DNA of 64,000 bases from positions 13,325-77,324 of the forward strand of contig DAOVJY010000002.1 of the NCBI GenBank assembly GCA_030632085.1. The letters run 5' to 3'. A program made the position numbers and the translations under genes. This document shows positions 25,088-49,275 of this stretch, one piece after another. How positions within the stretch are numbered: the stretch's first letter is position 1; each line of letters opens with the position of its first letter. The notes beneath the pieces were generated by a model, which saw only the letters and a list, made by a program, of their open reading frames with translations, made no database searches and was not told where the DNA came from. Origin of the DNA: Candidatus Omnitrophota bacterium (GTDB lineage: Bacteria; Omnitrophota; Gorgyraeia; JAGLLT01).

Positions 25088-25191
25088 ATCCCGCATTTCG
25101 CTAAAGCTCAAAGTTGCGGGATTTAATTCGGCCATATGATTTATGAGCACTATAGTTCCATAAATCATGGCCTCATTAAAGGAGGAGAAAG
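25088..25191 (+). promoter_or_regulatory. conserved 5' leader module (hairpins, TTAATTC, anti-SD CCTC-ATTAAAGGAGG)
   Basis: Hairpin atcccgca-N19-tgcgggat (25088-25122). ttaattc at 25123-29. Hairpin atgatttatg...cataaatcat (25136-25168). ggcctcattaaaggagg (25169-85) in which CCTC can pair with the SD GAGG. ATG at 25192. Confidence 0.5.
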
Positions 25192-25566
25192 ATGAAAGTA
25201 TGCTTAAGTTCTACGGGTGATAATTTAGATGCCCAAATAGATACACGCTTCGGCCGCTGCCGTTATTTTCTTTTTATCGACACTGATGGCATGGAAGTTG
25301 AGGCGATGGATAATGCTAATATTGCCTCGGCAGGCGGAGCCGGCATCAGGTCAGCCCAGTTGGTAGCTGATAAAGGGGCAGAAGTTCTTATAACCGGTAA
25401 TGTAGGCCCTAACGCCTTTGATGTTTTAAGTGCCGCCGGTATTAAAATTTATAGCGGCGCATCCGGCAGCATTAAAGACGCTTTAGAAAAATTGAAAACA
25501 GGTGGATTGAATGAGACCGGCGGCCCGGATGTAGGAAGTAAATTTGGTTTCGGAGGCGGCAAGTAA
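25192..25566 (+). CDS. second NifX/NafY-like DUF134 (PF02579) protein
   Basis: 124 aa. MKVCLSSTGDNLDAQIDTRFGRCRYFLFIDTDG, with a Gly-rich tail. Confidence 0.75.
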   Translation: MKVCLSSTGDNLDAQIDTRFGRCRYFLFIDTDGMEVEAMDNANIASAGGAGIRSAQLVADKGAEVLITGNVGPNAFDVLSAAGIKIYSGASGSIKDALEKLKTGGLNETGGPDVGSKFGFGGGK

Positions 25567-26169
25567 TTGGATATCAAAGCTGAAGAAAACCATAAGCGAT
25601 ATTTAGAAAGACTGGAGAAATCCAGGAGTTTTGGTTACGACCATTTAAAAATTCGCCATGGGATATTAAAAGAAGTACTGCCTTTAAAAGGAGTTATCGC
25701 AGACGTTGGTGCCGGCAAAGGCCATATGAGTCTGGCTTTAGCCAGCGCCGGTTATAATATTGACAGTATTGATATATCTTCTGAAGAACAGGAATTTGCT
25801 AAATTAAATTTGGCTTATTATAGGGTAATCGAGAGGGTAAAATTTCACATTGCTGATGCTGTGAACCTTTTTTATAAAGATAATTCTGTTGATTATATCT
25901 TCTGTGTTTGTGTAATGCACCATATTCAAAATTATAAAAAAGTAATTAATGAATTTTTTAGAATTATAAAACCAAAAGGAAAAATAATTATATCTGATTT
26001 TTCCATTAAGGGCCTGGAGCTTATCGCTCAAATGCATCAATCAGAAAATAGAGTTCACGAAACTACTATCGATAGCTTGAAGGTTGTTGAAGATTATTTA
26101 AATGAACAAAATAAACAGTTTAAGAAATTAAATCAGGATCATCAAGATACTTTAATAATTACTTCTTAA
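25567..26169 (+). CDS. class I SAM-dependent methyltransferase
   Basis: 200 aa. ADVGAGKGHMSLALASAG (motif I) and VDYIFCVCVMHH (motif II/III). Apparent TTG start. Confidence 0.7.
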   Translation: MDIKAEENHKRYLERLEKSRSFGYDHLKIRHGILKEVLPLKGVIADVGAGKGHMSLALASAGYNIDSIDISSEEQEFAKLNLAYYRVIERVKFHIADAVNLFYKDNSVDYIFCVCVMHHIQNYKKVINEFFRIIKPKGKIIISDFSIKGLELIAQMHQSENRVHETTIDSLKVVEDYLNEQNKQFKKLNQDHQDTLIITS

Positions 26170-26196
26170 GAAAAATATTATAAGGAGGCGATTTAA

Positions 26197-26427
26197 ATGC
26201 CATTTGGAGACGGTACAGGGCCAGGAGGCCAGGGAGCAGGTAGAGGAAGAGGAGCAGGTAGAGGCGGCGGTAGAGGCCGTATGGGTGGTAACAAGCCCGG
26301 CGCGGGGCCGAGCGGATATTGTGTCTGCCCAAATTCTAAATGTGATGGTAAACTTGTTCATCAAGCGGGTATACCATGTTATGAACTAACTTGTCCTAAA
26401 TGCGGGGCACGCATGGTAAGAGGATAA
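26197..26427 (+). CDS. DUF5320-like Gly/Arg-rich protein with C-terminal zinc ribbon
   Basis: 76 aa. MPFGDGTGPGGQGAGRGRGAGRGGGRGR... followed by CVCPNSKC...CPKCG. Confidence 0.5.
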   Translation: MPFGDGTGPGGQGAGRGRGAGRGGGRGRMGGNKPGAGPSGYCVCPNSKCDGKLVHQAGIPCYELTCPKCGARMVRG

Positions 26428-26671
26428 TTTCCGGGACTAAATCTTCGGAATTTCACAGCGTGAAATTCCAGAGGGTCTGACAATTTTGCGACTCTCGGCG
26501 GAATTAATTCATCCTGCCATTATGGAACTCATTAAGGAAATCAATAGACTCCTCGCTTAAATAAAGGTAAATTTTCTTCGACAATTTACCTTTAAGCTTC
26601 GGAGTTAATTCTGGTCTATCATTTACAACAATGAAGTTGGTGTAAATGATGCCCTCATTAAGGAGAGGTAA
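26428..26671 (+). promoter_or_regulatory. long structured leader: degenerate module copy, then palindrome AAAGGTAAATT-N9-AATTTACCTTT, TTAATTC, hairpin and anti-SD/SD
   Basis: Perfect palindrome GGAATTTCAC-AGC-GTGAAATTCC at 26445-26467. 11-bp perfect inverted repeat at 26563-26593 (spacer ttcttcgac). ttaattc at 26605-11. Hairpin 26618-26650. gccctcattaaggag at 26651-65. ATG at 26672. Confidence 0.5.
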
Positions 26672-28015
26672 ATGAAAAAGACGGATGTTTTGGTTGTTGG
26701 AGGAGGCCCGGCTGGCATTATAAGCGCGGTTACAGCCCGCAGGTATTATCCGGAAAAGGAAGTCAAACTGATTAAATCGGTAGATAAAGGAGTTATTCCC
26801 TGCGCCATACCTTATATGTTTTACAGTTTGAAAAGTCTTAAAGAAAATGCCCAGGGCAACGCGCCTCTTGAAAAGAATAATGTTGAAGTAATAGTTGATG
26901 AAGTTACAAAAATATCACCTGATAAAAAGTGTGTTACAACTAAAAAGGGAGAAGAGTATCAGTATGACAAGTTAATAATGGCGATGGGTTCAGAGCCCGT
27001 TATTCCTCCTATCTCCGGAGCGGACAAAGAGAACGTCTTTGCTATCTATAAAGATATGGAATACTTAGAAAAGCTTGCTGAGAAAATAAAAGGGTTTGAG
27101 AATGTGCTTATTGTGGGGGGAGGATTTATCGGAATAGAGTTTGCTGATGAACTGTCCTGCCGTAAAGAGTTTAACGTATCTTTAGTAGAGATGCTGCCTT
27201 CTATTTTGAGCCAGTCTTTTGATGCTGAATTTTCTGCTCCAGTCAAGGAAAGGCTGGAAAAAAAGGGCGTGAAGCTGTTAACAGGTGTAGTTTTAGAGGA
27301 AATTTTGGGTGAAGAAAAAGTTGAGGGAGTTAGATTATCAGGTAATAAAAAAATAGACGTAGATTGCGTTATTTTTGGTATTGGGGCTTCGCCCAACACT
27401 AAAGTAGCTCAGGAAGCTGGAATAGTTATAAATAAAGGCAAGGGAGTATGGGTTGATGAGTATATGAGGACGTCAGAGCCGGATATTTTTGCCGTTGGCG
27501 ACTGTGCCGGCAAAAGAGATTTCTTTACCCGTAAGGGGACGGCGATTTTACTTGCCTCAACAGCTACGGCAGAAGCTAGAATCGCGGGCGCCAGCTTATA
27601 TAAGTTAAAGTTGATTAGGGAGAATAAAGGGACCATTGCCATTTATTCCACCCGTATTGACGGCCTGGTTTTAGGGTCGGCGGGGATGACTGAAGATAGC
27701 GCTAAGAAGGAAGGGTTTGAAGTTGTAACCGGCCTGGTAGAAGGTGTTGATAAACATCCCGGGACTATGCCCGAGGCAAGCAAACTAATGGTTAAGCTTA
27801 TCTTTTCAAAGCAGTCGGGAATTATTTTGGGAGGACAGGTTGCCGGAGGTATGAGCTGCGGTGAGCTGATAAATGTTATCGGGGTTGCTATACAGCAAAG
27901 AGTTTCCTTGAATGAATTTGAAACTTTGCAGATGGCTACTCATCCATGTCTGACCGCGGCTCCCACAAAATATCCTTTAATCATCGCGGCCCAGAATGCT
28001 TCAAGTAAGATGTAA
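26672..28015 (+). CDS. FAD-dependent pyridine nucleotide-disulfide oxidoreductase, NADH oxidase/CoA-disulfide reductase family
   Basis: 447 aa. VLVVGGGPAGI FAD motif, redox Cys in GVIPCAIPY (the Nox/CoADR SxxxC-xxPY region), a second Rossmann fold VLIVGGGFIGIEFA, and GDCAG. Confidence 0.85.
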   Translation: MKKTDVLVVGGGPAGIISAVTARRYYPEKEVKLIKSVDKGVIPCAIPYMFYSLKSLKENAQGNAPLEKNNVEVIVDEVTKISPDKKCVTTKKGEEYQYDKLIMAMGSEPVIPPISGADKENVFAIYKDMEYLEKLAEKIKGFENVLIVGGGFIGIEFADELSCRKEFNVSLVEMLPSILSQSFDAEFSAPVKERLEKKGVKLLTGVVLEEILGEEKVEGVRLSGNKKIDVDCVIFGIGASPNTKVAQEAGIVINKGKGVWVDEYMRTSEPDIFAVGDCAGKRDFFTRKGTAILLASTATAEARIAGASLYKLKLIRENKGTIAIYSTRIDGLVLGSAGMTEDSAKKEGFEVVTGLVEGVDKHPGTMPEASKLMVKLIFSKQSGIILGGQVAGGMSCGELINVIGVAIQQRVSLNEFETLQMATHPCLTAAPTKYPLIIAAQNASSKM

Positions 28016-28021
28016 GTATTT

Positions 28022-29917
28022 TTGCGGCAGAAAATAGAGAGAATTATAAGAAAGCGCCGGATGATTAAGGCCGGTGTGGATAGGAAAGCGTTTATGAATA
28101 TTGCAATTTCAAGCGGCAAAGGCGGCACAGGTAAGACTTTTGTCGCTACCAATTTGGCTATTGTTCTAAAGAAACAGGATAATAAAGTTGCCTATCTGGA
28201 TTGTGACGTTGAAGAGCCCAACGGACATCTTTTTTTAAAGCCGGCAGTAATTACGGCTAAAGATATTCACATTACAGCACCGGCTGGCGTTGATAAAGAG
28301 AAATGCGATAACTGTAAAAAATGTGTTTCTGCCTGCGCCTTTAACGCCATTGCTTCGATTAAAGATAAAATTCTTTTTTTCAGGCAGTTATGTCATGCCT
28401 GCGGCGCTTGCCGAATAGCCTGCCCCAAAGACGCTATTATTTATGAAGAAAGAAAAATAGGTGTTTTAAATTCAGGAACCGCGGATAAAATAAATATTAT
28501 CTATGGGGAACTTCAGACGGGTGAAGGGGCTATGACTCCCCGGTTAATCAGTGAAGTTAAAAAACATATAAATTCTCAGGCCATTAATTTAATTGATACG
28601 GCTCCCGGCACATCCTGCCCCGTGGTTGAAGCTATTTCCGGTATGGATTTAGTGGTTTTAGTTACTGATCCGACTCCATTTGGAGTTAATGATCTTAAGC
28701 TCTCAGTAGATATGTGCCGTATGGTAGGCCATGAGCCTGTAGTTTTGGTCAATAGGGCTGATTATAAAAATAATGATTTAATTGAATATTGCGAAAAAGC
28801 TCAGCTTGATATTATTGGTGAGATACCGGATGACAGGCAGGTGGCTGAACTATATTCTGAGGGCAAGATGGCTGTCAAGTATTTAAAGGCCTATGATGAC
28901 CTATTTTCAAAGATAGGTGAAGAGATTATCCAAAGGGCGTTAAATAAAAAAATACCAAAAGTTTTAAAGAATCCGCAAAAGAGTAGTTTTACAAATAAAC
29001 TTAGCGCCATACCGGCCCAGGCAGAACCCATCCGAAGCAGATATGATGAAATTATAATTATCAGCGGCAAAGGCGGCACCGGCAAAACAACCATAGCCGG
29101 TGGTTTTGCCAGCTTAAGCAAAAACGCGCTTATAACTGATTGTGACGTTGACGCGGCAGACCTGCATATTCTTTTATCTCCTGAGATAAAAGAGGGATAT
29201 CTATTTTCAGGCGGTAAAAAAGCGGCAATTGATCAGGAGAAGTGTACTGCTTGCGGCAGATGTTATGAAGAGTGTCGTTTTGGTGCCGTTAAAAAAGAAG
29301 GCAGCGGTTTTATAATTGATCCTTTAAAATGTGAAGGCTGTAATACCTGTTCTTTGGTTTGTCCTCAAGATGCCATAAAATTAGAAGAGGCGGTTAACGG
29401 AGAGCTTTATGTTTCCGAAAGCCGTTTTGGTCCTATGGTGCACGCTAAACTCTACGCGGCTGAAGAAAATTCAGGTAAATTAGTCAGTCTTATCAGGCAG
29501 ATGGCCAGAGACAAAGTTGCAAATGTTTCCACCGCTATTTCTCTCAATGACGGCGCGCCCGGAACCGGTTGTCCGGTAATTGCCTCAATTAGCGGCGCGG
29601 ATTACGCGGTTGTGGTTACAGAGCCGACGGTTTCCGGAATTCATGATGCCGGCAGAGTTTTTGAACTCTGTACTTTTTTTAATATCAAGGCAGGTTTAAT
29701 TGTAAATAAGAGTGATATAAATTTAAACAAGGCTGAAGAATTGAAAGCTATAGCTTTGAAATCCAATGTGGACTTTTTAGGTATGGTGCCTTATGATAAA
29801 AGTACAACAGAGGCTCAAATGTTAAATAAAAGCGTAATTGAATATGATCAGGAATGCCCGGCGTCAAAACGCATTAGAGATATTTGGCAGGATTTAATTG
29901 AGAAGGTGAAAGTATGA
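28022..29917 (+). CDS. tandem-duplicated MinD/Mrp-type P-loop ATPase with inserted 2x[4Fe-4S] ferredoxin domains (COG1149-like)
   Basis: Two modules, each with a deviant Walker A (AISSGKGGTGKT, IIISGKGGTGKTT) and two CxxCxxCxxxCP ferredoxin motifs. The true start is probably Met-25 (MNIAISS at 28094). Confidence 0.8.
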   Translation: MRQKIERIIRKRRMIKAGVDRKAFMNIAISSGKGGTGKTFVATNLAIVLKKQDNKVAYLDCDVEEPNGHLFLKPAVITAKDIHITAPAGVDKEKCDNCKKCVSACAFNAIASIKDKILFFRQLCHACGACRIACPKDAIIYEERKIGVLNSGTADKINIIYGELQTGEGAMTPRLISEVKKHINSQAINLIDTAPGTSCPVVEAISGMDLVVLVTDPTPFGVNDLKLSVDMCRMVGHEPVVLVNRADYKNNDLIEYCEKAQLDIIGEIPDDRQVAELYSEGKMAVKYLKAYDDLFSKIGEEIIQRALNKKIPKVLKNPQKSSFTNKLSAIPAQAEPIRSRYDEIIIISGKGGTGKTTIAGGFASLSKNALITDCDVDAADLHILLSPEIKEGYLFSGGKKAAIDQEKCTACGRCYEECRFGAVKKEGSGFIIDPLKCEGCNTCSLVCPQDAIKLEEAVNGELYVSESRFGPMVHAKLYAAEENSGKLVSLIRQMARDKVANVSTAISLNDGAPGTGCPVIASISGADYAVVVTEPTVSGIHDAGRVFELCTFFNIKAGLIVNKSDINLNKAEELKAIALKSNVDFLGMVPYDKSTTEAQMLNKSVIEYDQECPASKRIRDIWQDLIEKVKV

Positions 29918-30768
29918 AAACCAATACTCATTGCATTCCATGTTTTTTAAGGCAGGCCAATGAAACCCTGGATAGAATTAGTGTTCCTGAAAACAAAAAA
30001 AGAGAAATCCTAAAAGCTGTCTCAGATGCTATTTTTAAAGTCCCCTTCGAGAAAAGTCCGCCGCATGTTGCCAGGAAGGTATATGAGGTTATAAGTGAAT
30101 TAACAGGCATTGAAGACGCCTATAAAAAAGAAAAAAAGCATGCCAATGAACTGGTTTTAAAGCTTTATCCTGAATTAAAAAAGAGAATAAATAATTCCGG
30201 CAACCCTCTATTTGAAGCTGTTCGCTTAGCGGCCATTGGAAATATAATAGACTTAGGCGTTAAATCAACTTTCAACCTGGAAGAAGAGTTAAAAGAAGAT
30301 TCAAATACAGAGTTTAAAATTTTTGACTTTGAAATATTTAAAGATAAATTAAGCAAAGCTAAAAATATTCTCTATATAGCTGATAATACCGGTGAAATTG
30401 TTTTTGATAAACTTCTAATTGAAGAGATCAAAAAACCGGTAACTATTGCCGTGCGGGGAAAACCTATAATCAACGACGCTACTTTGGAAGATGCTCTTAA
30501 TTGCGGCTTGGATAAAGTGGCTCATGTTATTTCCAGTGGTTCTGACGGCCCGGCTGCCATATTGGACAGTTGTAGCCGGGAATTTTTGGATATATTTGAT
30601 AAAGCCGATTTTATTATAAGCAAAGGACAGGGTAATTTTGAAGAATTATGCGATAGAGATGAACCCATTTTTTTTATTTTTAAAGCTAAATGCCCGGCTG
30701 TGGCCGATGATTTGCGAGTTAATGTAGGTGATATGATATTAAGTTACAAAACCCACCGGAAAAAATGA
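29914..30768 (+). CDS. DUF89 (ARMT1-like damage-control phosphatase) family protein
   Basis: 284 aa. N-terminal CIPCFLRQ motif and the DUF89 core. Confidence 0.7.
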   Translation: MKTNTHCIPCFLRQANETLDRISVPENKKREILKAVSDAIFKVPFEKSPPHVARKVYEVISELTGIEDAYKKEKKHANELVLKLYPELKKRINNSGNPLFEAVRLAAIGNIIDLGVKSTFNLEEELKEDSNTEFKIFDFEIFKDKLSKAKNILYIADNTGEIVFDKLLIEEIKKPVTIAVRGKPIINDATLEDALNCGLDKVAHVISSGSDGPAAILDSCSREFLDIFDKADFIISKGQGNFEELCDRDEPIFFIFKAKCPAVADDLRVNVGDMILSYKTHRKK

Positions 30769-31481
30769 AAATCAGAATTATAGCTGATAACTATACGCAG
30801 GATAGTAGATTTAAAGAGTGCTGGGGATTCTCAGTGCTTATAAATGATGATATTTTATTTGATACGGCTGATAGTGCTGAAACTTTTCTATATAACGCGA
30901 AACAGTTAGATGTTGACCTTTCAGCCATAAAAAAAGTAGTTATTTCACATGACCACTGGGATCATATTGGTGGGTTGGAATCTTTATTTAAAAAAAATCC
31001 TAACGTTGAACTTTATGGTTTAAAGGATTTTTCCGAAGATTTCAAAAATTTAGCCGATAAATATAACATAAAATTAATTGAATGTGAAGATTTTAAGGAA
31101 ATTGATCCAGGCGCTTATGTAAGCGGTTCATTTAAAACTATATATAAACAGAAAAAGCTTGTTGAACAAGCACTAATATTAAAAACTGTAAAAGGCCTTA
31201 TAATCATATTAGGTTGTTCCCACCCGGGAGTAGTTGAGATGGTAGAGGTTATAAAGAAGCATTTCAATGAGAAAATATACTACGTTATGGGAGGATATCA
31301 TTTAGGCTCAAAAACAGAGAATGAAATTGAAAATATAGCGTTAAAGCTGCAAAAACTGGGTGTTAATAAAGTTGCTCCTACACATTGTACGGGCCAAAAG
31401 GCAATTGATATTTTTAGTAAAATGTATAGCGATAATTTTTTACGCCTTAAAACAGGCCTGGAAATTGAATTTGATTTTTAA
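30765..31481 (+). CDS. MBL-fold metallo-hydrolase (COG1237-like)
   Basis: 238 aa. VISHDHWDHIGG metal-binding motif and GCSHPG. Confidence 0.75.
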   Translation: MKIRIIADNYTQDSRFKECWGFSVLINDDILFDTADSAETFLYNAKQLDVDLSAIKKVVISHDHWDHIGGLESLFKKNPNVELYGLKDFSEDFKNLADKYNIKLIECEDFKEIDPGAYVSGSFKTIYKQKKLVEQALILKTVKGLIIILGCSHPGVVEMVEVIKKHFNEKIYYVMGGYHLGSKTENEIENIALKLQKLGVNKVAPTHCTGQKAIDIFSKMYSDNFLRLKTGLEIEFDF

Positions 31482-31496
31482 GTGAAGACACAACTT

Positions 31497-31625
31497 ATAG
31501 AGCGGGAGCGAACATAAGTTGTATGTCTGAACTTACCCCGCAACTTTCTATTTCGGAGAAGTTCTTCGTAGCAAAAAAGTGCGGGGTTTAATTCGCACAG
31601 AAACTTACGCTCACTTTGTTTCGTA
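31497..31625 (+). promoter_or_regulatory. hairpin-rich intergenic region (three stable stem-loops), a candidate structured RNA or regulatory region
   Basis: agacacaacttat...ataagttgtatgtct (about 14 bp stem). ccccgca-N34-tgcgggg followed by tttaattcg (same architecture as 25088-25129). aaacttacg...cgtaagttt. Confidence 0.3.
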
Positions 31626-31689
31626 AGTTTAGCGCTCATTTAAAAAATAGCTTGAAATAACCCCCTATTTCTGTAACAATGTACTCTAA

Positions 31690-32256: not shown

Positions 32257-32273
32257 CGTATAAGGAGTAAGTC

Positions 32274-32678: not shown

Positions 32679-32774
32679 AAGTAAAACTAAAATTTTATCG
32701 CGGCAGAAGAAGGGTTAGAATAAAAATATTTACAGATAGATTGATTTCCGTGAATTATACCTAAAAAAAAGCAA

Positions 32775-32805
32775 AAGGGAGATATGGTTTTTATCTCCCT
32801 TTTTC
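32775..32805 (+). terminator. rho-independent terminator
   Basis: aagggagata / tatctccctt stem followed by ttttc. Confidence 0.6.
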
Positions 32806-32952
32806 ATTGAAAATAATAGTTAAATTTTGTATACTAATGATAGGCAAAACAAGAAATATTAAAAAACGCGGTTGGTTATATTTTGGCTCTTGCTCTATAG
32901 GTTTCTCACGGGAGCAAATTCACAAACTTAATAAAGATAAGAAGAAATATTT

Positions 32953-33753: not shown

Positions 33754-33754
33754 T

Positions 33755-34075: not shown

Positions 34076-34080
34076 AAAAT

Positions 34081-38600: not shown

Positions 38601-39283
38601 ATATCGGCTATGGCGGTTTGGATCATGTGCTGGCTTGCGGAAAAAATGTAAATGTTCTGGTGCTGGATACGGAAGTATATTCAAATACAGGCGGGCAGAT
38701 GTCTAAAGCTACTCCTATGGGAGCTGTTGCTAAGTTCGCGGCTGCCGGCAAGCCGATATTTAAAAAAGACCTGGGTTTACTGGCTATGGCTTACGGTAAT
38801 ATTTATGTGGCCAGGATAGCTATGGGTGCTAATCCGGCTCAAGCGATAAAGGCTTTTGTTGAGGCTGAAAGTTACGACGGCCCTTCGATTATTATAGCTT
38901 ACAGTCACTGTATAGCCCACGGAATTAATATGACTAAAGGTATGGAGCAGCAGAAAAAAGCTGTCGCTTGCGGTTGCTGGCCGTTAATAAGATTTAACCC
39001 TGATCTTTTAAAAGAAGGTAAGAATCCTCTACAGCTTGATTCGAGGGAACCTAGTATACCTCTGGAGGATTACATTTATAATGAAAACAGATTTAAAACT
39101 CTTAAGAAATCCAACCCTCAAAGGGCTAAAGAATTATTAGACTTGGCTCAGCATGAGGTTAATTGCAGATTCAAGAGATATCAATATATGGCTAAGATGG
39201 ATTGTTCTCAAGAAACAAGTATAAAGTCATCAGTCATACCCTTTCGGGCACAGGCAAGTCACAAGCAAGAAGCAAATAGCTAA
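35624..39283 (+). CDS. nifJ: pyruvate:ferredoxin (flavodoxin) oxidoreductase, single-polypeptide NifJ/Por type
   Basis: About 1219 aa from the ATG at 35624 (the ORF-track start at 35597 is an upstream TTG). Ferredoxin-domain Cys motifs (CIQCGQCSLVCP, CTGCGACVNICP), TPP domain GGDGWAYDIGYGGLDH. The last about 20 codons are derived from the intergenic repeat module. Confidence 0.93.
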   Translation: MASKMKTMDGNTAAAYIGHATNEVIAIYPITPSSGVGEMADAKSAKGEVNIWGQVPTVSELQSEAGAAGTVHGALTAGSMTTTFTASQGLLLMIPNMHKIAGELTPAVFYVTARTVASHALSIFCDHSDIMAVRSTGFAILSGSSVQEVMDLALVAQAATLESRVPFVFTYDGFRTSHEIQKIEEIDFASMKSLIKNEYLRSHRLRGLNPERPVLRGTSQNPDVFFQERETVNAYYDKCPQIVEDVMKRFKEVVGREYKLFEYVGAPDAERVILIMGSAAETVHEAVDYLVAQGEKVGVLKVKLFRPFSIEHFIKALPASVKKIAVLDRTKEPGALGEPLYLDARSAIGEAMEKGIATLKEYPVIVGGRYGLGSKEFTPAMVRGVFDNLSLDKNKIKNHFTVGINDDLTHTSLEYNAEFSTEDPDTFRGIFYGLGSDGTVGANKNSIKIIGELTDNYVQGYFVYDSKKAGSKTVSHLRFGKHLIRGTYLISKANFVACHNFSFLEKYDVLGAAEDKATFLLASPFSKDEVWDKMPIEVQKQIIDKKLKFYVIQAYKLAGEIGLGVRINVIMQTAFFAISEVIDKNKAVEAIKDAIIKSYGKKGESVVNMNNQAVDKALEAIEEVIVPKEATSKIKIPAAVPDEAPEFVKNVTAKIIVDKGDELPVSAFPKDGTFPTATSQYEKRNIAINIPEWDPEICIQCGQCSLVCPHAAIRMKMYDKKLLDKAPVTFKHMQAKGKDLEGKALTIQVAPEDCTGCGACVNICPITRKDKDNKPTGRKALNMVPQIDRRLKEKDNFTFFLSLPDMKAEDLPVGIGTLKGSQLMRPLFEFSGACAGCGETPYVKLLSQLFGDRALIANATGCTSIYGGNLPTTPYCVRNDGRGPAWSNSLFEDNAEFGFGMRLAVEQLSEKAKLLLKDVAEKISDKKSLIDEIITTSQITHDEIDKQRFRIEELREALKKFSSEAKVAELLEILDYLVKKSVWILGGDGWAYDIGYGGLDHVLACGKNVNVLVLDTEVYSNTGGQMSKATPMGAVAKFAAAGKPIFKKDLGLLAMAYGNIYVARIAMGANPAQAIKAFVEAESYDGPSIIIAYSHCIAHGINMTKGMEQQKKAVACGCWPLIRFNPDLLKEGKNPLQLDSREPSIPLEDYIYNENRFKTLKKSNPQRAKELLDLAQHEVNCRFKRYQYMAKMDCSQETSIKSSVIPFRAQASHKQEANS

Positions 39284-39500
39284 TAGCTAAGAGCAAAGGG
39301 CAAACACAGGATTAAGGATTAAGAATTAAGGATTAAGTAAAAAACAAGATACAAAAAACAAGTACAAAGTCACAAGACACAAGTTGTAAGTCACATGACA
39401 TAAGTCACAAGTAAAAAACAAAAACAAAAGAACAAAAAGATAAGACACAAGAAATAAGTTATAAGTCATACCCTTTCGGGCACAGGCAAGACACAGGTCA
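39232..39500 (+). repeat. modular A/C-rich intergenic repeat locus 2 (modules D, A heptads, B decamers, C A/C tracts, D)
   Basis: agtcataccctttcgggcacaggcaag at 39232-58 (inside the PFOR 3' end) and again at 39464-90. Heptads gattaag/aattaag at 39310-37. aagtcacaag / aagacacaag decamers. caaaaacaaaagaacaaaaaga tracts. Almost T-free on the + strand. Confidence 0.8.
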
Positions 39501-39526
39501 CAAGAAACAAAAAAGTAAAGATGTCC

Positions 39527-39649
39527 CTTGCTTAAACAAAGGTAAATTCTCTTTGACAATTTACCTTTAAGCTTCGGGATTAATTCGGGCTTATCATTTA
39601 CGACAGCGAAGCTGACGTAAATGATGCCCTCATTAAGAGGAGGGTTTGT
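39527..39649 (+). promoter_or_regulatory. conserved cis-module copy 2: palindrome AAAGGTAAATT-N9-AATTTACCTTT, TTAATTC, hairpin, anti-SD/SD
   Basis: Inverted repeat at 39538-39568 with spacer ctctttgac (contains TTGACA). ttaattc at 39580-86. Hairpin 39593-39625 with compensatory changes relative to copy 1. gccctcattaagaggagg. ATG at 39650. Confidence 0.55.
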
Positions 39650-39838: not shown

Positions 39839-39845
39839 TTTATAT

Positions 39846-40174: not shown

Positions 40175-40183
40175 GGGAATGAT

Positions 40184-41311: not shown

Positions 41312-41315
41312 AAGC

Positions 41316-41771: not shown

Positions 41772-41775
41772 ATAG

Positions 41776-42546: not shown

Positions 42547-42667
42547 AAATAAGTCACAAAAGATAAGTCATAAGTCACATGACACAAGTCACAAGACAAA
42601 TAGCTAAGAGCAAAAAACAAAAGAACGAAAAACAAAAAACTAAAAAAAACAAGAAATTGAACTACTC
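42547..42667 (+). repeat. modular A/C-rich intergenic repeat locus 3
   Basis: aagtcacaaaagataagtcataagtcacatgacacaagtcacaagac, then aaatagctaagagc, then caaaaaacaaaagaacgaaaaacaaaaaactaaaaaaaacaag. Same modules and order as locus 2. Confidence 0.8.
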
Positions 42668-42760
42668 CTTGCTTAAACAAAGGTAAATTATCAAAGAGAA
42701 TTTACCTTTAAGCTTCGGAGTTAATTCTCCGCCTAAGGCGGATCATTAAGGAGTATAACA
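42668..42760 (+). promoter_or_regulatory. conserved cis-module copy 3 (palindrome with inverted spacer, TTAATTC, GC hairpin, ATCATTAAGGAG)
   Basis: aaaggtaaatt (42679-89), atcaaagag, aatttaccttt (42699-709). The spacer is the reverse complement of copy 2's. ttaattc at 42721-27. Hairpin tccgcctaaggcgga. tcattaaggag. ATG at 42761. Confidence 0.55.
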
Positions 42761-43921
42761 ATGGAATTTTCCAAAAGAGCGCAAGTCATAATGGCCTCTC
42801 CGACTTTAGCCATTACTTCCAAGGCTAAAAAAATGAAGGCGGATGGAGAAGATGTGGTAAATTTTGCCGCCGGGGAACCGTTTTTTGATACACCCGATCA
42901 AATCAAACAGGCAGCTATCGAGGCCATTCAAGAAGGTTTTACTAAATATACGCCGGCAGCCGGAGCACCATTTTTAAAGAGGGCTATTTGTCAGAAGTTT
43001 AGGAATGATAACGGTATTGATTATGATGAAAATCAAATTGTTGTTTCCTGCGGAGCTAAACATTCTTTGTTTAACATTATGGAAATTCTCTGCGATGAAA
43101 AGGATGAGGTTATTTTTTCCGCTCCTTACTGGGTAAGTTACCCGGAGATGGTAAGGTTTGCGGGGGGCCAACCCATAATAATAAAGACATTAGAAAAAAA
43201 CGATTTTAAATTTAAAGCGGATACCTTAAGAAAATATATTACTAATAAAACTAAAATACTTATTTTAAACAGTCCTTCCAACCCCACGGGAGCGATGTAT
43301 ACTCGAGACGAATTAGAGGAAATTGCCGAAGTGGCTGTAAAGAATAATCTTTATGTTATCAGTGATGAAATATATGAAAAGATAATTTATGGTAGCAAAA
43401 AACATGTTTCTATCGCTTCTTTAGGTAAGGACATTTATAAGCGAACTATTACGGTAAATGGTGTTTCAAAGACTTATTCTATGACAGGATGGCGTATTGG
43501 TTATTTAGGGGCACCTGAAGCTATAGCTTCCAAGATTAAGAATTTGCAGAGTCATTCAACTTCAAATCCCGCTTCTATCAGCCAGAAAGCGGCTTACGCG
43601 GCTTTAAGTTGTGATGAGTCTATAATCGGAAATATGGTTTCTGAATTTAATGTAAGGCGCAAGTTAATGGTTAAAGGCCTTAATTCGGTTAAGGGATTTT
43701 CATGTAAATCACCCGACGGGGCTTTTTATTGTTTTTGCAATACAAGAGAAACTAATATGAATTCTATGGATTTGGCTAATAAGCTTTTAAAGGAACAAAA
43801 AATAGCGGTTATTCCCGGTATAGCTTTTGGCCAGGAGTATTATTTAAGATTCAGTTTTTCGTGTGACACTGAACAGATTGAAAAAGGGATATCCAGATTG
43901 AGGGAGGCATTCGCGAGCTAA
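42761..43921 (+). CDS. aspC: aspartate/aromatic aminotransferase (class I PLP)
   Basis: 386 aa. Overall AAT-like similarity with PLP-Lys in the NGVSKTYSMTGWRIGY region and NSPSNPTG. Confidence 0.88.
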   Translation: MEFSKRAQVIMASPTLAITSKAKKMKADGEDVVNFAAGEPFFDTPDQIKQAAIEAIQEGFTKYTPAAGAPFLKRAICQKFRNDNGIDYDENQIVVSCGAKHSLFNIMEILCDEKDEVIFSAPYWVSYPEMVRFAGGQPIIIKTLEKNDFKFKADTLRKYITNKTKILILNSPSNPTGAMYTRDELEEIAEVAVKNNLYVISDEIYEKIIYGSKKHVSIASLGKDIYKRTITVNGVSKTYSMTGWRIGYLGAPEAIASKIKNLQSHSTSNPASISQKAAYAALSCDESIIGNMVSEFNVRRKLMVKGLNSVKGFSCKSPDGAFYCFCNTRETNMNSMDLANKLLKEQKIAVIPGIAFGQEYYLRFSFSCDTEQIEKGISRLREAFAS

Positions 43922-43922
43922 G

Positions 43923-45179
43923 ATGGGAAAAACTATTGCTGAGAAAATTTTAAGTAATCACGCGGAGAGGGATTTGAAGGCCGGCGATTTGGCTATATGC
44001 AAGGTTGATTTTTGTTTTGGCCAGGATGGTACAAGCGGGCTTATAATTGATTCATTTAGTGAGCTTAAAAATAGTAAAGTGGCGGAGAAAGATAATTTTT
44101 GCATGGTTATTGACCACTCGGCACCGAGTCCGAACGAAAGGGTCTCGGAAATTCATAATAAGATGCGCAGCTTTGCTCAAAAGCACAAGATTAATATGTA
44201 TGATATCGGTTGCGGCGTTTGTCATCAGGTAATTCCCGAGGGGGGCCATGTTACATGCGGCGATCTAATTGTTGGAGCTGATTCTCATACCTGTACCTAC
44301 GGAGCTTTGAACGCGTTTTCAACGGGTATGGGCTCAACTGATTTAAGCATTATTGTTGCCAGCGGTAAAACCTGGTTCAAGGTGCCCGAAACGGTTAAAA
44401 TGATGATTGACGGTGAGCTTGCCAAAGGAGTTTACTCCAAGGATATAATTTTACATATCACAGGAGATGTTAAATCCGATGGCTGCACTTATAAAGCTAT
44501 TGAATTTTCCGGAGAAACTATCAAAAACTTAAGTATGGACGCGCGCTTTACCATATCCAATATGGCTATTGAAGTAGGAGCTAAAGCGGGTATTATGGGG
44601 GCCGATGAGAAGACTTTTGACTGGCTGGAGAAGCATTGCCGGAAACCTTGTAAGCCGGTGAGAAGCGATGATGACGCGATTTATAGCCAGATAAAAGTAT
44701 ACGATGCTTCAAAGATAGTTCCGATGGTAGCTAAACCACACACAGTCGATAATACGGCTACAGTTGAAGAAGTTAGCGGCCTAAAAATTAATCAGGGTTA
44801 TATTGGCACTTGTACTAATGGCCGCCTGGAAGACTTAAGGATCGCGGTTTCCATATTAAAAAATAAAAAGGTGCATCCTGATGTAAGATTTTTGGTCGCG
44901 CCGGCATCGAATAATATATATTTGGAGGCTCTTGCCGAAGGCCTGATTTCATGCTTAATTGAGTCCGGAGCCACGATTCTACCCCCGGGTTGCGGTCCCT
45001 GCGTGGGAACCCATCAGGGGGTTCCTTCCGATGGTGAGGTGGTTATTTCAACGGCTAACAGAAATTTTAAAGGCCGCATGGGTAATCCCAAAGCCTTTAT
45101 ATATTTAGCTTCACCGGCGACTGTGGCTGTGAGTGTAATTAATGGAAAGATAACGGATCCCAGGGGTTATGTAAAATGA
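43923..45179 (+). CDS. aconitase-family hydro-lyase large subunit (archaeal-type LeuC/HacA, about 420 aa)
   Basis: 418 aa. [22 protein letters not shown] and the Fe-S Cys ligands GTCTNGR and PGCGPCVG. Confidence 0.85.
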
Positions 45180-45679
45180 GATTAAAAAGCCGGGCCATTA
45201 GACTCAAACAGGATAATGATGTTAATACTGATTATATAATTTCAGGCCGGTATAAATTCCAAATTCAGGATCCTAAGGAATTAGCTAAATATGTTTTTAA
45301 TGATCTGGAACCGGATTTTTTAAAAAGAACCGGCGGCAGAAGTATTATTATAGCCGGTTCTAATTTCGGCTGCGGTTCATCAAGAGAACAAGCACCTTTG
45401 GCTCTAAAATACGCGGGCATAAAAGCGATTATTGCCAAAAGTTTTGCTCGTATTTTTTATCGTAACGCTTTCAATCTGGGTATTATACTTATTGAAGCTG
45501 AGACTGACGATATTGCCGATATGGACGAACTGGAATTAGATTTAGACGCGGGTACATTAAAAAATACAACTAAAGACTTTGAAGTTAAATTTAACCCTTT
45601 ACCTGAATTTATGGAAGAGGTTATCAGAGACGGTTCAATAGTAAAGTACTTTAATAAACATGGAGGATTTCAGTTTTGA
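45176..45679 (+). CDS. aconitase-family small subunit (LeuD/HacB-like)
   Basis: 167 aa. Swivel-domain motifs [17 protein letters not shown] and [17 protein letters not shown]. Overlaps the large-subunit gene by 4 nt. Confidence 0.85.
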
Positions 45680-46758
45680 GTAAATATAAAATTACACTTA
45701 TACCGGGAGACGGCATAGGGCCTGAAGTCAGTGAAGCCGCTAAAAGATGTATTGACGCGACTAAAGTAGATATTGAATGGGAAATTGTTGAAGCGGGCAG
45801 CGCGGTTATTGAAAAAGAAGGAACTCCTTTGCCGGATAGTGTTATTGAGTCGATAAAGAAAAATAAAATTGCTCTAAAAGGGCCAATAGTAACCCCGGTG
45901 GGTACCGGTTTTCGTTCGGTTAATGTGGCGTTGAGACAGAGGCTTGATTTATACAGTTGTCTCAGGCCATGCAAAAGTTATGCAGGGCTTAATATACCCT
46001 ATAGTGACGTTGATTTAGTGATTGTAAGAGAAAATACGGAAGACCTCTATGCCGGTATAGAGTTTGAAGAAGGCCGGAAGGAAACTTTGGAGCTTATTGA
46101 AAAAATAGAGCAATTATCATCTAAGAAAATACTCAAAGATTCCGGTGTAAGCATAAAGCCCATTTCAGAGACGGCAACAAAGAGAATCGTAAAGTTCGCT
46201 TTTGAATATGCCCTAAAAAATAACAGAAAGAAAGTGACGGCTGTTCATAAGGCCAACATTATGAAATTTTCCGACGGTTTATTCTTAAGAGTGGCCCAAG
46301 AGGTTGCCGGGGAATATGAAGGCCGTGTGGAATTCACTGAAAATATAGTTGACAATTTATGCATGCAGCTTGTTTTGAGGCCGCATAATTTTGATGTTTT
46401 GGTTTTACCTAATCTTTACGGAGACATTATTTCCGATTTATGCGCCGGCTTAGTGGGAGGCTTAGGTTTAGCTCCGGGGGCAAATATCGGTGACGATTGT
46501 GCTGTTTTTGAGGCTACGCATGGCTCAGCTCCGAAATATACGGGTTTAAATAAAGTTAATCCTGTGGCCATGATTCTCTCCGGTGTTTTAATGCTAAAGT
46601 ATCTTAAAGAAGACGCGGCGGCAGATAAGCTTGAGAACGCGGTTAAAGAGATTATCTCTGAGGGTAAATCAGTTACTTATGACTTAAAAAAAGATAGGAA
46701 TGATCCTTCGGCTGTCGGAACCAGCCAAATGGCGGATGCGATAATTGAGAAGTTATAA
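45676..46758 (+). CDS. isocitrate/isopropylmalate dehydrogenase family NAD(P)-dependent beta-decarboxylating dehydrogenase
   Basis: 360 aa. The [13 protein letters not shown] region and the [10 protein letters not shown] motif. Confidence 0.85.
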
Positions 46759-47024
46759 GGCTATCAGCTGGCAGCTAAACAAGTCACAAGTCATACCCTG
46801 GTGGGCACAGGCAAGACATAAGTCACAAGTAAAAAAATAAAAACAAACAAATAAGATGCAAGAAACAAGTGCAAAGTCATACCCTGGTGGGCACAGGCAA
46901 GACATAAGTCACAAGATAAATAGCTAAGAGCCAAGAGCTTAGAGCTAAGAGCAAAAAACAAAAACAAAAGAACAAAAAGACAAAAAGCTGAAGGCTAATA
47001 GCTGAAAGCAGAGAGCTGATAATT
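46759..47024 (+). repeat. modular A/C-rich intergenic repeat locus 4 with two identical 41-nt direct repeats
   Basis: agtcataccctggtgggcacaggcaagacataagtcacaag at 46789-46829 and again at 46875-46915 (100% identical). aaatagctaagagc. caaaaacaaaagaacaaaaaga. It runs up to the mdh ATG, with no palindrome or leader module. Confidence 0.85.
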
Positions 47025-47948
47025 ATGAAAATTGGCATTATTGGAGCGGGAAATGTTGGCTCGACTTTAGCTTTTAAAATTTTAAATGATAATCTGGCTG
47101 ATGTAGCTTTAGTTGATATAAACGCTGATTTAGCCATAGGCAAAGCCCTTGATTTAAATGATGCGTCAGGCGTTTTCGGGTTAGACAAAAAAGCTGTTGG
47201 CAGTGACTCTTATCAAGTAATTGAAGACGCGGATTTGATTGTTGTTACCGCCGGCTTTCCCAGAAAACCGGGAATGAGCCGGGAAGACCTGCTTCTGAAG
47301 AACGCGGGTATAATTAAAGAGGTTATAACCAAAATAAAAAAAGTTAATTCGAAGGCTATAATTATCATGGTGACTAATCCTTTGGATGTAACAACTTACC
47401 TGGCTTATAAGGTAAGCGGTTTTGATAGAAAAAGGGTTTTTGGGATGGCTGGCGTTCTTGATTCAGCCAGGCTGGCAGTTATCCTTTCGGAAGAACTAAA
47501 AAAAGATTTAGCCGATATAAATTCAATGATTTTAGGTACTCACGGTGATTCTATGGTGCCCTTAAAAAGTAAAATTATTATTGAAGATAAAAATGTTCTG
47601 GAAATAATCGACGAACCCGCGGTTGACGCTCTCCTGGAAAAAGCCAAAACTCAGGGCGGCAGGATAGTTGCTCATCTTAAAGGCGGCAGTGCTTACTACG
47701 CTCCGGCTACGAGCGTTTATAAAATGATTGATGTAATTGTAAATGACAAAAAAGAAATTCTTCCTGTTTCGGTTTATTTAGAAGGTGAATACGGCCTTAG
47801 CGATGTTTGCCTGGGTGTGCCGGTGAGACTTTCAAAAAATGGAATAGAGGAAATAATCGAGGTTGACTTGACGCAGGCGGAAAATAACAAGCTAAAAAGC
47901 GCCAATGAGGTTATAAAATCCGGAATAGCTAAAGTTATGAATGTTTAA
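47025..47948 (+). CDS. mdh: malate dehydrogenase (LDH-like MDH family)
   Basis: 307 aa. KIGIIGAGNVGS Rossmann fold, GFPRKPGMSR, NPLDV, and the HGDSMVP catalytic His region. Confidence 0.9.
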   Translation: MKIGIIGAGNVGSTLAFKILNDNLADVALVDINADLAIGKALDLNDASGVFGLDKKAVGSDSYQVIEDADLIVVTAGFPRKPGMSREDLLLKNAGIIKEVITKIKKVNSKAIIIMVTNPLDVTTYLAYKVSGFDRKRVFGMAGVLDSARLAVILSEELKKDLADINSMILGTHGDSMVPLKSKIIIEDKNVLEIIDEPAVDALLEKAKTQGGRIVAHLKGGSAYYAPATSVYKMIDVIVNDKKEILPVSVYLEGEYGLSDVCLGVPVRLSKNGIEEIIEVDLTQAENNKLKSANEVIKSGIAKVMNV

Positions 47949-47950
47949 AA

Positions 47951-48880
47951 GTGCATATAAAAAAACATTTTTTTAATTTTATATTAAAAGCGCCGCTGAT
48001 AATCCTGGCGCTTTTATTGTCGAGTTGCCGGGGCGCAAATTATATTACTCAAAGCCAATTGCTTTTAGGTACGACGGTTTCCATTAGTGTTGGGGCTCAT
48101 GATGTTGTTTTGGCAGATAAAGCGTTGATTGCCGCTTTTGGTGAAATAAAGCGTATAGAAAATGTTATGAGCTATTTTAAAAAAGACAACTTGCTTAATA
48201 AATTGAATTCTCAAGCTTCAATTAAGCCCGTTGAAATATCAGATGAACTTTTTTATTTAATTGAAACTTGTCAGAAGTTTTCAGAATTTACCGGTGGCGC
48301 TTTTGATATAACGGCAACTTCATTAGATGAAGCTGATGGATATAAACAAATTGTTTTAGATATAGACAAAAAAACAGTATTTTTTAAAAACAAAAAGGCG
48401 CGAATAGATTTAGGAGCGGCTGCCAAAGGTTATGCCGTTGATAGAGCCATAACGGTTTTGCGTTCATACGGGTTTAATAATGCCTTAGTAAATGCCGGCG
48501 GGGATATATATGCTTCAGGTAATTATAAGGGCGGCAAATGGGCCATAGGAATAAGAAATCCTTCAAAAAAAGATAAAATAAAGGATAAAATATATTTAAC
48601 TAATATGGCTGTGGCAACTTCGGGTAATTACCTGAGAGCGCATATTATTAGAACAAAAGATAAAAATTTAAAATCAAATGTGGTATCAGCCACTGTTATA
48701 GCCTCAAGTTGTCTTGAGGCCGATATCTTGGCGACTGCTGTGTTTGTAGATCCCGATGCGGCTTTAAAAACCGCGGAAAGCCTCAAGGGTATAGAAATTT
48801 TACTTATTAAAAATATGGATCAAAAGCTTAAAGAAACAAAAACCAGCGGATTCATGAAATATAAAGTTAATAAAAGGTAA
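47951..48880 (+). CDS. apbE: FAD:protein FMN transferase (ApbE family lipoprotein)
   Basis: 309 aa. Signal/lipobox-like N-terminus (LALLLSSC), DLGAAAKGYAVD and ATSGNY motifs. Confidence 0.85.
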   Translation: MHIKKHFFNFILKAPLIILALLLSSCRGANYITQSQLLLGTTVSISVGAHDVVLADKALIAAFGEIKRIENVMSYFKKDNLLNKLNSQASIKPVEISDELFYLIETCQKFSEFTGGAFDITATSLDEADGYKQIVLDIDKKTVFFKNKKARIDLGAAAKGYAVDRAITVLRSYGFNNALVNAGGDIYASGNYKGGKWAIGIRNPSKKDKIKDKIYLTNMAVATSGNYLRAHIIRTKDKNLKSNVVSATVIASSCLEADILATAVFVDPDAALKTAESLKGIEILLIKNMDQKLKETKTSGFMKYKVNKR

Positions 48881-48882
48881 GT

Positions 48883-49263
48883 ATGTTTGAGTCATTTAAA
48901 ATTTATAAAGATAATCGGATCAATGGCCGCGTGGGAAGACTTAATCGTCAAGCCTACTGTTATTTATTATTGCCAGCTGATAAAGCCATTGACGAAAAAG
49001 CAAAAAAACGATTAAATGTAATTAGTAAGTTTACAAATTTAGGTTCCGGGTTTAAAATAGCTATGGAAGATTTAGAGATAAGAGGTGCCGGTAGTCTTTT
49101 GGGCCGGCAACAGCATGGATATATATCTTTAATAGGTTTCGATCTTTATTGCCGCCTTTTAAAAGATTCGATTAAAAAGTTAACCAAAAATGAAAATTTG
49201 AAAAATAGAGATAAACTAATTCGGACATATGTTAATTCTCCCCGCCGCGGCGGGGATCATTAA
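48883..49263 (+). pseudogene. mfd: internal fragment of transcription-repair coupling factor Mfd (helicase C-terminal region)
   Basis: 126 aa. NLGSGFKIAMEDLEIRGAGSLLGRQQHGYISLIGFDLYCRLLKDSI matches the DLGAGF-IA-DLEIRGAG-LLG-QSG-I-GF-LY-LL block of Mfd at about residues 900-960 of 1150. Both the N-terminal 900 aa and the C-terminal D7 domain are absent. Confidence 0.65.
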
Positions 49264-49275
49264 GGAGAAAACTCT
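49232..49275 (+). promoter_or_regulatory. conserved leader module copy (TTAATTCTCC, GC hairpin, GGATCATTAAGGAG) upstream of the surA-like gene
   Basis: ttaattctcc, then ccccgccgcggcgggg (49240-55), then atcattaaggag. Nearly identical in architecture to 42721-42753. Confidence 0.5.

Follow-up and report, generated by a model that had tools for sequence, protein, structure and literature searches.

What do the genes of a Nox-like protein, a ferredoxin, an aminotransferase and a SurA-like peptidyl-prolyl isomerase (PPIase) share that they should carry the same structured leader directly in front of their start codons? This question is posed by a 64,000-nt stretch of contig DAOVJY010000002.1 of a Candidatus Omnitrophota bacterium—hereafter the window, itself part of a 286-kb metagenome scaffold. 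From the letters of the window, the original prediction had described five such leaders, upstream of the genes starting at 25192, 26672, 39650, 42761 and 49276, and had proposed that they form one family under selection for RNA structure. We find that these leaders belong to a structure-conserved, phylum-wide, multi-copy modular cassette in Candidatus Omnitrophota, which is registered to the nucleotide with the Shine–Dalgarno (SD) sequence or with the 5′ end of a tRNA and which turns over between relatives. As far as searched, the cassette is not previously described, with no earlier description found in the literature on Omnitrophota. Rfam 15 gives 0 matches at gathering score and, at E ≤ 1, nothing on the leaders.

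Anatomy of the cassette

The cassette spans 45–120 nt, usually ~90–120 nt, and mostly consists of two hairpins that lie immediately 5′ of the ribosome-binding site (RBS). Its consensus can be written as (P1, a long hairpin, YYCC...GGRR)-U-Y-A-A-U-UC-(P2, a hairpin of 15–44 nt)-UC-A-U-U-R-A, followed by the SD GGAG and, 5–8 nt beyond it (6–9 nt at the five predicted window sites), by the start codon. P1 typically measures 54–64 nt and is built from a YYCC/GGRR base, an asymmetric internal loop, an apical AAAAUU/AAUUUU stem and a YUCUUCGAY loop; the 5′ side of the internal loop reads UCGUAAGA in the family consensus and UUGCUUAAACAA in type-2 P1. Directly after P1, the 5-bp helix P2a joins U-Y-A-A-U with A-U-U-R-A and encloses P2—whose commonest size class is 42–43 nt—across a tandem UC/UC pyrimidine mismatch. 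The SD lies outside every conserved helix, and GGAG is single-stranded in the consensus fold. On its 5′ side, P1 is flanked by a weak U(−2)A(−1) only. On the 3′ side, GGAG corresponds to tRNA positions 1–4 where cassettes abut tRNA-Ser genes and, hence, the cassette proper ends at UCAUURA.

In the window, TTAATTC, a hairpin and TCATTAA(A)G(A)GGAG are present at each of the five predicted sites, with TCATTAAGGAG as the motif before the start codon, an extra A in copy 1 and ...AAGAGGAGG in copy 3. The predicted extent falls short of the actual unit, which is much longer as it includes P1, and the five copies are joined by three more at 26429-26539, 31475-31586 (minus strand) and 31535-31646 (Table 1). 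Two observations that had suggested a common family are real: the compensatory A-U to G-C changes at two positions between 26618-50 and 39593-625—accompanied by one U·G to C-G change—and the near-verbatim match between 42721-53 and 49232-67. The copies starting at 26549, 39524 and 42665 share a 76–118-nt block at 80–86% identity that includes P1 and precedes the Nox, ferredoxin and aminotransferase genes (family D5, 76 nt at 80–84% identity; family D6, 118 nt at 86% identity). In two of these copies, CUCC/GGAG forms the outermost pairs of P1, in the third UCCC/GGGA; the P1 of copy 1 is different. Minimum free energy (MFE) folds contain P1, where present, and P2 in each of the five copies, with z scores of −3.3 to −5.3 for copies 1–4 (−3.5 for copy 1). 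Pfam agrees with the predicted gene labels at four genes, whereas the gene at 25192 is a Nitro_FeMo-Co gene and not DUF134.

By itself, TTAATTC is not enriched in the window (41 occurrences vs 32 expected), while TCATTAAGGAG with at most one mismatch occurs 7 times where 1.7 are expected. TCATT precedes the SD at 5 of ~66 window gene starts (~8%), which marks it as something other than the general RBS context.

Three simpler roles for parts of the cassette were considered. An upstream open reading frame (ORF) through P2 is not conserved: a frame leading from an AUG in the 3′ strand of P2 to a UGA that overlaps the main AUG is found in copies 2 and 3, not in copy 1. The TAA/TGA within UCAUURA was rejected as a functional stop, as it lies in a single frame and acts as a stop only in copy 5, via decay of the upstream gene. 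P1 was rejected as an intrinsic terminator, since it lacks a U-tract and a terminator scan finds none at the cassettes.

Conservation of the fold in relatives

The best matches of the Nox protein of the window are found in Candidatus Omnitrophota/Omnitrophica metagenome-assembled genomes (MAGs), the closest at 94% identity and others at ~65–69%. One genome per species was scanned with the pattern GGRR-TYAATTC-N14-44-TCATTRAGGAG, all four Y/R combinations being permitted, which returned at least 119 loci, nearly all from Omnitrophota. Among the matches listed, four structure-less ones from Acidobacteria, Shapirobacteria, Acholeplasmataceae and Aenigmatarchaeota are chance; the remaining ones come from Omnitrophota-labelled MAGs and single-amplified genomes or from bins labelled otherwise, the labels being unverified; several of these bins carry more than one copy. 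The loci used for comparison are 8-kb pieces (some up to 20 kb) picked by the pattern containing GGAG, and the taxonomic labels of their MAGs are unverified.

Relatives reveal the P2a helix most directly. The cassette before the copy-1 orthologue in the closest relative (locus L056) and one in locus L059 (67% identity) read TCAATTC...TCATTGAGGAG in place of TTAATTC...TCATTAAGGAG, which indicates that 5′-UYAAU pairs with AUURA-3′. Among the matches listed, this Y/R pair is U-A in 61 cases, C-G in 55, U·G in 3 and C·A in 2. In the same set, the closing pair of P2 varies between G-C (89), A-U (13) and C-G (10), GGRR ends in GA (74), GG (17), AG (16) or AA (14), and a YYCC partner is present at the start of the P1 hairpin for 97 of 117 instances, the other 20 being without detectable P1.

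A covariance model (R1) rests on 11 homogeneous sequences and on a structure drawn by hand. In the window—searched with filters off, and with E-values from a shortened calibration—it recovers all five predicted copies and the three additional ones. Over 100 related loci (710 kb), it gives 144 matches at E ≤ 0.01, while 515 kb of viral contigs that bear the linear motif by chance give 0. The generic pattern TTAATTC-N14-44-TCATTAAGGAG has 53 single matches in these viral contigs, none of which is a cassette by R1, showing that the linear motif alone is uninformative.

In a structural alignment of the 144 sequences—which is fitted to R1, so that its pairing figures lean towards the structure—91.2% of the paired cells hold standard pairs, compared with 67.1% in 500 shuffles, none of which reached the observed value. 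Sliding the partners by 1–3 columns leaves 34–46% paired cells. Double-sided changes occur at 41 of 42 pairs, and compensatory cells number 1262 against 402 in shuffled alignments. The 47 matches outside the pattern keep YYCC/GGRR and U-N-A-A-U-UC ... UC-A-U-U-N-A, here with A-U as a third pair type, together with the invariant apical stem AAAAUU/AAUUUU and the loop YUCUUCGAY of P1; the minus-strand unit of the window (31586 to 31475) adds a further compensatory variant of P2a. Since the Y/R table is independent of the pattern and many positions show three or four Watson–Crick types, the predicted fold is secure nonetheless. With the motif before ~8% of the window genes and its structure conserved in relatives, the leaders are neither a random RBS context nor a feature without conservation, and the proposal of a shared family with secondary structure under selection stands.

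Genuine cassettes were also seen in bins labelled Planctomycetia (L064, L074, L089, L096, L113, L130 and others), Nitrospirota (L105/L177/L178), Ratteibacteria (L067/L155), Smithella (L081), Victivallales (L108) and Methanosarcinales (L124). In similarity to the window, the "Planctomycetia" bin of L130 roughly equals the Omnitrophota-labelled bin of L143. Hence, these bins may be mislabelled or contaminated, or the element may reach wider into the PVC (Planctomycetes–Verrucomicrobia–Chlamydiae) group.

Table 1. Cassettes and associated features of the window, with the scores of covariance model R1
Feature	Position	Strand	Parts	SD, start and gene	R1 bits; E
Copy 1	25089-25185	+	P1 25089-25121 (UCCCGCA...UGCGGGA); P2a 5′ strand UUUAAU 25122-27; UC 25128-29; P2 25130-25172 (43 nt); UC 25173-74; AUUAAA 25175-80	SD GGAGG 25181-85; start 25192 (Nitro_FeMo-Co, Pfam)	53.6; 1e-10
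Decayed tandem unit	26429-26539	+	Upstream of copy 2; P1 interrupted by inserted mini-hairpin (GGGACUAAAUCUUCGG..., GGGACUAAAUC...), then GGAA-TTAATTC-N18-TCATTAAGGAa	SD lost	19.6; 0.012
Copy 2	26549-26665	+	P1 26549-26604 (CUCC...GGAG); UUAAU 26605-09; UC 26610-11; P2 26612-26654 (43 nt); UC 26655-56; AUUAA 26657-61	SD GGAG 26662-65; start 26672 (Pyr_redox_2, Nox-like)	77.1; 3e-16
Inverted pair	31475-31646	both	Shared P1 31535-31586 (CCCCGCA...UGCGGGG); minus unit 31586 to 31475, P2a UAAGU/ACUUA; plus unit 31535-31646; tails UCACUUAAAAA and UCAUUUAAAAA	Both units without SD	47.5; 3e-9 (minus) and 34.9; 3e-6 (plus)
Copy 3	39524-39644	+	P1 39524-39579 (UCCC...GGGA); UUAAU 39580-84; UC 39585-86; P2 39587-39629 (43 nt); UC 39630-31; AUUAA 39632-36	SD GAGGAGGG 39637-44; start 39650 (4Fe-4S ferredoxin, Pfam)	86.7; 2e-18
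Copy 4	42665-42753	+	P1 42665-42720 (CUCC...GGAG); UUAAU 42721-25; UC 42726-27; short P2 42728-42742 (UCCGCCuaaGGCGGA); UC 42743-44; AUUAA 42745-49	SD GGAG 42750-53; start 42761 (class I/II aminotransferase, Pfam)	41.6; 7e-8
Copy 5	49232-49267	+	No P1; UUAAU 49232-36; UC 49237-38; P2 49239-49256 (UCCCCGCCgcGGCGGGGA); UC 49257-58; AUUAA 49259-63; overlaps 3′ end of decayed ORF 48883-49263	SD GGAG 49264-67; start 49276 (SurA-like PPIase)	18.4; 0.023
"Empty" orthologous site (BLAST synteny, gap-tolerant alignment)	61366-61427	+	62-nt spacer ending ...GCUUAUUAAAC-GGAGG		
Heptamer arrays (TRF)	8695-8723; 39308-39337; 39344-39458; 42549-42655; 46922-46986				

Genomic neighbourhood and turnover

An SD-like sequence and an ORF lie downstream of 108 of 152 matches. 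Among 53 matches outside the pattern, 24 stand directly before a gene start in the proper orientation, 11 are tandem upstream units before another cassette, 12 are inverted partners—a few being reverse-strand echoes of a palindromic P2—and 8 are other. An SD is consistently missing from the inverted partners, whose tails are A/U-rich; the arrangement of the inverted pair in the window recurs in other genomes. In 61 cases the gene upstream runs in the same direction as the cassette, in 7 it is divergent, and P1 begins <40 nt past the upstream stop codon in 24 of the 61. Many cassettes are, hence, intercistronic.

Across the phylum, the targets comprise the genes for RRF, L21, S15, IF3, GroES, SSB, EF-Ts, LexA, transaldolase, PilT, transporters and many others, with many housekeeping and highly expressed genes among them. 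Two full cassettes abut tRNA genes instead, as annotated by ARAGORN: tRNA-Ser(gct) at L134:4432-4639 and tRNA-Ser(cga) at L146:3734-3916. The junction reads UCAUUAA/GGAGAGG..., with GGAG as tRNA nucleotides 1–4.

Within a genome, near-identical copies stand before unrelated genes, both in the window and in other MAGs, and the 3′ half of the decayed P1 at 26429-26539 is identical to that of a P1 in another locus (L090). Between genomes, the cassettes come and go. In the closest relative, a cassette precedes the orthologue of the copy-1 gene as it does in the window (L056, 7894-7991), while the site of copy 2 before Nox has none, the upstream gene stopping 9 nt before the start codon. At the surA site, Ca. 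Kappaea (L065, ~80% DNA identity) bears P1-spacer-P1-P2(42 nt)-SD where the window has UUAAUUC-P2(18 nt)-SD. The ORF upstream of surA, with a weak RecG_dom3_C match, measures 126 aa in the window and 641 aa in Ca. Kappaea (L065:629-2554); a ~1.5-kb internal deletion appears to have occurred in the window, whose remnant now stops at the TAA within the UCAUUAAGG of the cassette. A third comparison pairs a filled with an empty site: relative to window positions 61366-61427, locus L143 (RS_5_28, ~71% identity) has ~150 nt extra, which comprise a mini-P1 plus a full cassette (745-906). The sequences on either side are homologous, with the match picking up again at ATTAA/GGAGG; the gene thus retains its own SD, and no target duplication is visible at this pair of sites.

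The spacers around the cassettes hold further repeats. A mini-element of GGGACUAA(A/G)UC plus a short hairpin recurs in or beside P1 (window ~26435-26480, L092, L103, L179 and L065:520-575), which suggests nested insertion of small palindromic units. Tandem arrays of 7 nt—GGATTAA, AAGTCAC/AAGACAC, AGCTAAG and CAAAAAA—occupy long spacers, two of which lie directly 5′ of cassettes 3 and 4. The spacer at 46759-47024 measures 266 nt in the window and 22 nt in Ca. Kappaea (L065), making these arrays lineage-specific expansions. Within heptamer-repeat spacers, a second dispersed repeat of ~66 nt (family D4) occurs four times (39210-39275, 39442-39507, 46767-46832 and 46853-46918) at 64–82% identity to the reference copy; its core, AAGUCAUACCCUUUCGGGCACAGGCAAG, is a small CCC-UUUC/UGGU-GGG hairpin.

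Some observations concern the window at large. Its GC skew is +0.15 to +0.20 across positions 1-64000 and all genuine-looking ORFs of at least 120 aa lie on the plus strand; the genes are thus co-oriented with the leading strand to an unusually strict degree. Upstream of the decayed tandem unit, 26197-26427 encodes a 76-aa Gly/Arg-rich protein with a C-terminal CxxC...CxxC, no Pfam match and an 18-nt tandem repeat at 26225-26265; this gene has 90% DNA identity to L056 and belongs to a Fur / DUF5320 / Nitro_FeMo-Co / MinD-Fer4 cluster. The one Rfam match of the window at E ≤ 1, a sub-threshold and unrelated L20_leader match at 14699-14794 (27.3 bits vs a gathering score of 58.7, E 0.34), is probably spurious and overlaps a terminator-like hairpin after the gene ending at 14730.

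Role, kinship and meaning

Regarding function, we lean, with some reserve, towards a transcribed constitutive 5′ leader or intercistronic module which presents the SD unpaired and propagates in the manner of REP/BIME or "mobile promoter" sequences, and which is no SD-sequestering switch. The cassette would be transcribed as a 5′ leader or an intercistronic spacer, in which two very stable hairpins might lock the upstream RNA and leave a strong SD always unpaired at the helix foot. This would insulate the SD from upstream sequence, while the hairpins might shield the RNA from exonucleases and/or act as a processing site. Judged from the comparative patterns, such a portable unit may spread and homogenise within genomes and might be retained wherever it is beneficial or harmless to expression.

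Parts of this picture have counterparts elsewhere. The 5′ untranslated region of E. coli ompA likewise has two hairpins, the second next to an exposed SD, and phage T7 reuses many times an RNase III site made of a ~20-bp hairpin with an internal loop between cistrons. These are single-gene or single-phage solutions, however. Pneumococcal BOX, neisserial Correia and enterobacterial ERIC elements resemble it in their modular, A-B-C-like build, hundreds of copies, position near gene starts and stable RNA hairpins; such elements can influence expression or become substrates of RNase III or RNase E. In contrast to the cassette, they have terminal inverted repeats, TA target duplications or both, and none of them extends beyond a genus or family. 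The cassette ends YYCC... and ...TCATTRA are not mutual inverted repeats and are flanked by (T)A and GGAG, which sets the cassette apart from miniature inverted-repeat transposable elements. Putative mobile promoters are 50–100-nt upstream regions that occur with at least 80% identity before non-homologous genes of one genome (Matus-Garcia et al. 2012, PMC3488235). Window copies 2–4 fall under this operational definition; yet mobile promoters have no defined structure, whereas the cassette shows a covariation-backed fold, no recognisable promoter and a conservation beyond recent copies of 80% identity.

Several observations weigh against a constitutive leader. YUCUUCGAY, UC/UC and UYAAU are conserved throughout the phylum, which suggests that a specific partner acts on them in trans; a purely passive stabiliser could do without one. 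The inverted partners that share a P1 and lack an SD have no obvious leader role, and cassettes abutting tRNA-Ser genes gain nothing by SD presentation. The majority of instances were ascertained with a pattern demanding GGAG. Finally, G·U pairs in the stems (165) outnumber A·C (119) only modestly, and the two are about equally frequent in P2 and upper P1—a ratio unlike that of typical functional RNAs, which fits a DNA-level hairpin or young copied palindromes. The ratio does not separate the RNA from the DNA level, and selection specifically on the sense-strand RNA is, hence, not demonstrated.

The alternative that survives best is possible, if on balance unlikely: a mobile or domesticated non-autonomous hairpin repeat acting at the DNA level—of REP/REPIN-RAYT or IS200/IS605-PATE type—with an incidental effect on expression. 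A tyrosine (HUH) transposase would read P1 and P2 in single-stranded DNA, and TYAAT/ATTRA would set the right-end cleavage, with insertion 5′ of GGAG. In IS200/IS605 elements, a short guide at the hairpin foot recognises the cleavage site and insertion takes place beside a short specific sequence; at the right end of IS608, the guide 5′ of the hairpin foot pairs with a site 3′ of the hairpin, of which the cassette layout is reminiscent. These elements and PATEs have subterminal hairpins at both ends and neither terminal inverted repeats nor target-site duplications. P1 and P2 sit at the cassette ends in the same way, no such repeats or duplications are visible, and the right boundary falls exactly between ATTRA and GGAG at the two tRNA-Ser genes and at the L143/window site. 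However, the cassette pairing is an ordinary antiparallel helix extension, and the likeness of the ATTRA-GGAG boundary is circumstantial. The similar frequency of G·U and A·C in the stems is in keeping with a DNA-level element as well, as is the location of all window copies but one on the strand with the positive GC skew, which is the lagging-strand template.

The REP/BIME and REPIN sequences of Proteobacteria, which are mobilised by RAYT, extend the likeness to copy dynamics: they are abundant intergenic hairpin repeats, mosaic, tandem or inverted, and homogeneous within a genome. The cassette has near-identical copies within genomes and a REP-like organisation with tandem, nested and inverted units, the latter exemplified by the window pair at 31475-31646. 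REPs are 20–40 nt long with a 5′ GTAG, are species-specific and mostly lie 3′ of genes; they are transcribed in operons and can stabilise mRNA. The cassette differs by its length of ~90–120 nt, two distinct hairpins, phylum-conserved motifs (TYAATTC/TCATTRA and the loops) and nucleotide register with SD or tRNA. Its 5′ end is YYCC after the weak UA, with the GTAG hallmark absent, and its position and orientation are biased to the 5′ side of genes. Partial Pfam tables of the 8–20-kb loci—whole genomes were not searched—hold neither a RAYT nor another transposase gene beside any copy. The persistence of cassettes at orthologous sites (copy 1 vs L056, copy 5 vs L065) likewise argues against a purely mobile element. 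The constitutive leader and its rivals are not mutually exclusive, and a domesticated mobile leader would combine the former with a DNA-level transposon remnant.

A distinctly less likely alternative takes the cassette as the cis-target of a phylum-specific global factor, namely an RNA-binding protein or Nus/antitermination machinery, with P1 as a nut-like site composed of a boxA-like stretch and a boxB-like hairpin. By modifying RNA polymerase, processing or translation, this factor would act on hundreds of operons and some tRNAs. The protein-binding leader named by the original prediction is possible. The unpaired conservation that does not depend on the search pattern—the YUCUUCGAY loop on AAAAUU/AAUUUU, the internal loop in either form and UC/UC—is what such a factor would leave, and cassettes precede mRNAs and tRNAs alike, with many housekeeping, highly expressed targets. 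The UUGCUUAAACAA of type-2 P1 resembles the E. coli boxA, GCUCUUUAACAA, but the likeness is partial, with the family consensus agreeing at ~5 of 9 positions. Some copies, moreover, do without P1, such as copy 5 and the listed matches in which none is detectable, and many cassettes are operon-internal.

We regard a DNA-level promoter as improbable, in which an alternative-sigma or activator site would lie in the P1 palindrome and TYAATT would serve as −10. This would account for the use before protein and tRNA genes and for divergent pairs on one P1; the P1 loop (TTCGAYA/TTGACA) resembles a −35 element, and the spacers upstream of copies 2–4 show no canonical sigma-70 promoter in a scan. Nevertheless, the TTGACA-like loop lies 21–22 bp from TYAATT, whose second position, critical in a −10, is Y, and a promoter search finds no positioned sigma-70 −35/−10 upstream of P1 or in the cassette. 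On inspection, sigma-54, ECF, sigma-28 and sigma-B-like promoters were rejected on spacing and critical bases. Other window genes are served by evident canonical TTGACA-N17-TATAAT promoters, and the covariation through all of P1 and P2a points to a folded single strand spanning any such start site.

The thermometer-like switch of the original prediction—CCUC pairing with GGAG(G) before a redox and central-metabolism gene set—is highly improbable: although CCUC is present in three window copies and the MFE fold of copy 3 pairs GCCCUC with GAGGGU, the CC(C) before UCAUUAAGGAG pairs with the GG(G) just after TTAATTC as the basal clamp of P2 (alignment columns 189-192 with 324-327), which co-varies freely in relatives (GCAC/GUGC, GACC/GGUC, GUCC/GGAC), so that CCUC is not conserved and is absent from most members. 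RNA thermometers such as ROSE and fourU are also short structured leaders ending at the SD, but they pair it, whereas no conserved alternative pairing sequesters the SD of the cassette; the diversity of its targets and the tRNA-Ser sites leave a thermometer or a redox regulon unsupported.

Omnitrophota are abundant, uncultivated, ultra-small bacteria, and we know of nothing on their gene expression. Standing before about one in ten window genes, before ribosomal-protein and translation-factor genes in relatives and before two tRNA-Ser genes, the cassette would be a dominant feature of their transcriptome architecture. Its covariance model could improve the annotation of gene starts and operons in MAGs, serve as a binning marker and flag mislabelled bins, and the cassette repeats could explain assembly breaks. 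More generally, the cassette is a rare case of a dispersed repeat which is in nucleotide register with the RBS and conserved across a phylum, linking REP- and MITE-type dynamics to translation-initiation regions. It is also a testable candidate for a new RNA–protein or single-strand-DNA-transposase system.

A bolder reading, which we consider unlikely, sees in the cassette a phylum-specific RNA "start module" which a dedicated Omnitrophota factor, or else the machinery of transcription or processing, would read, which would mark hundreds of mRNAs and some tRNAs per genome, and which would propagate by guide-pairing (UYAAU:AUURA). Examples would be nut-like antitermination, or a precise cut after AUURA that makes the SD or the tRNA the new 5′ end. 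If true, such a module would add a new level of global gene regulation in this uncultivated phylum.

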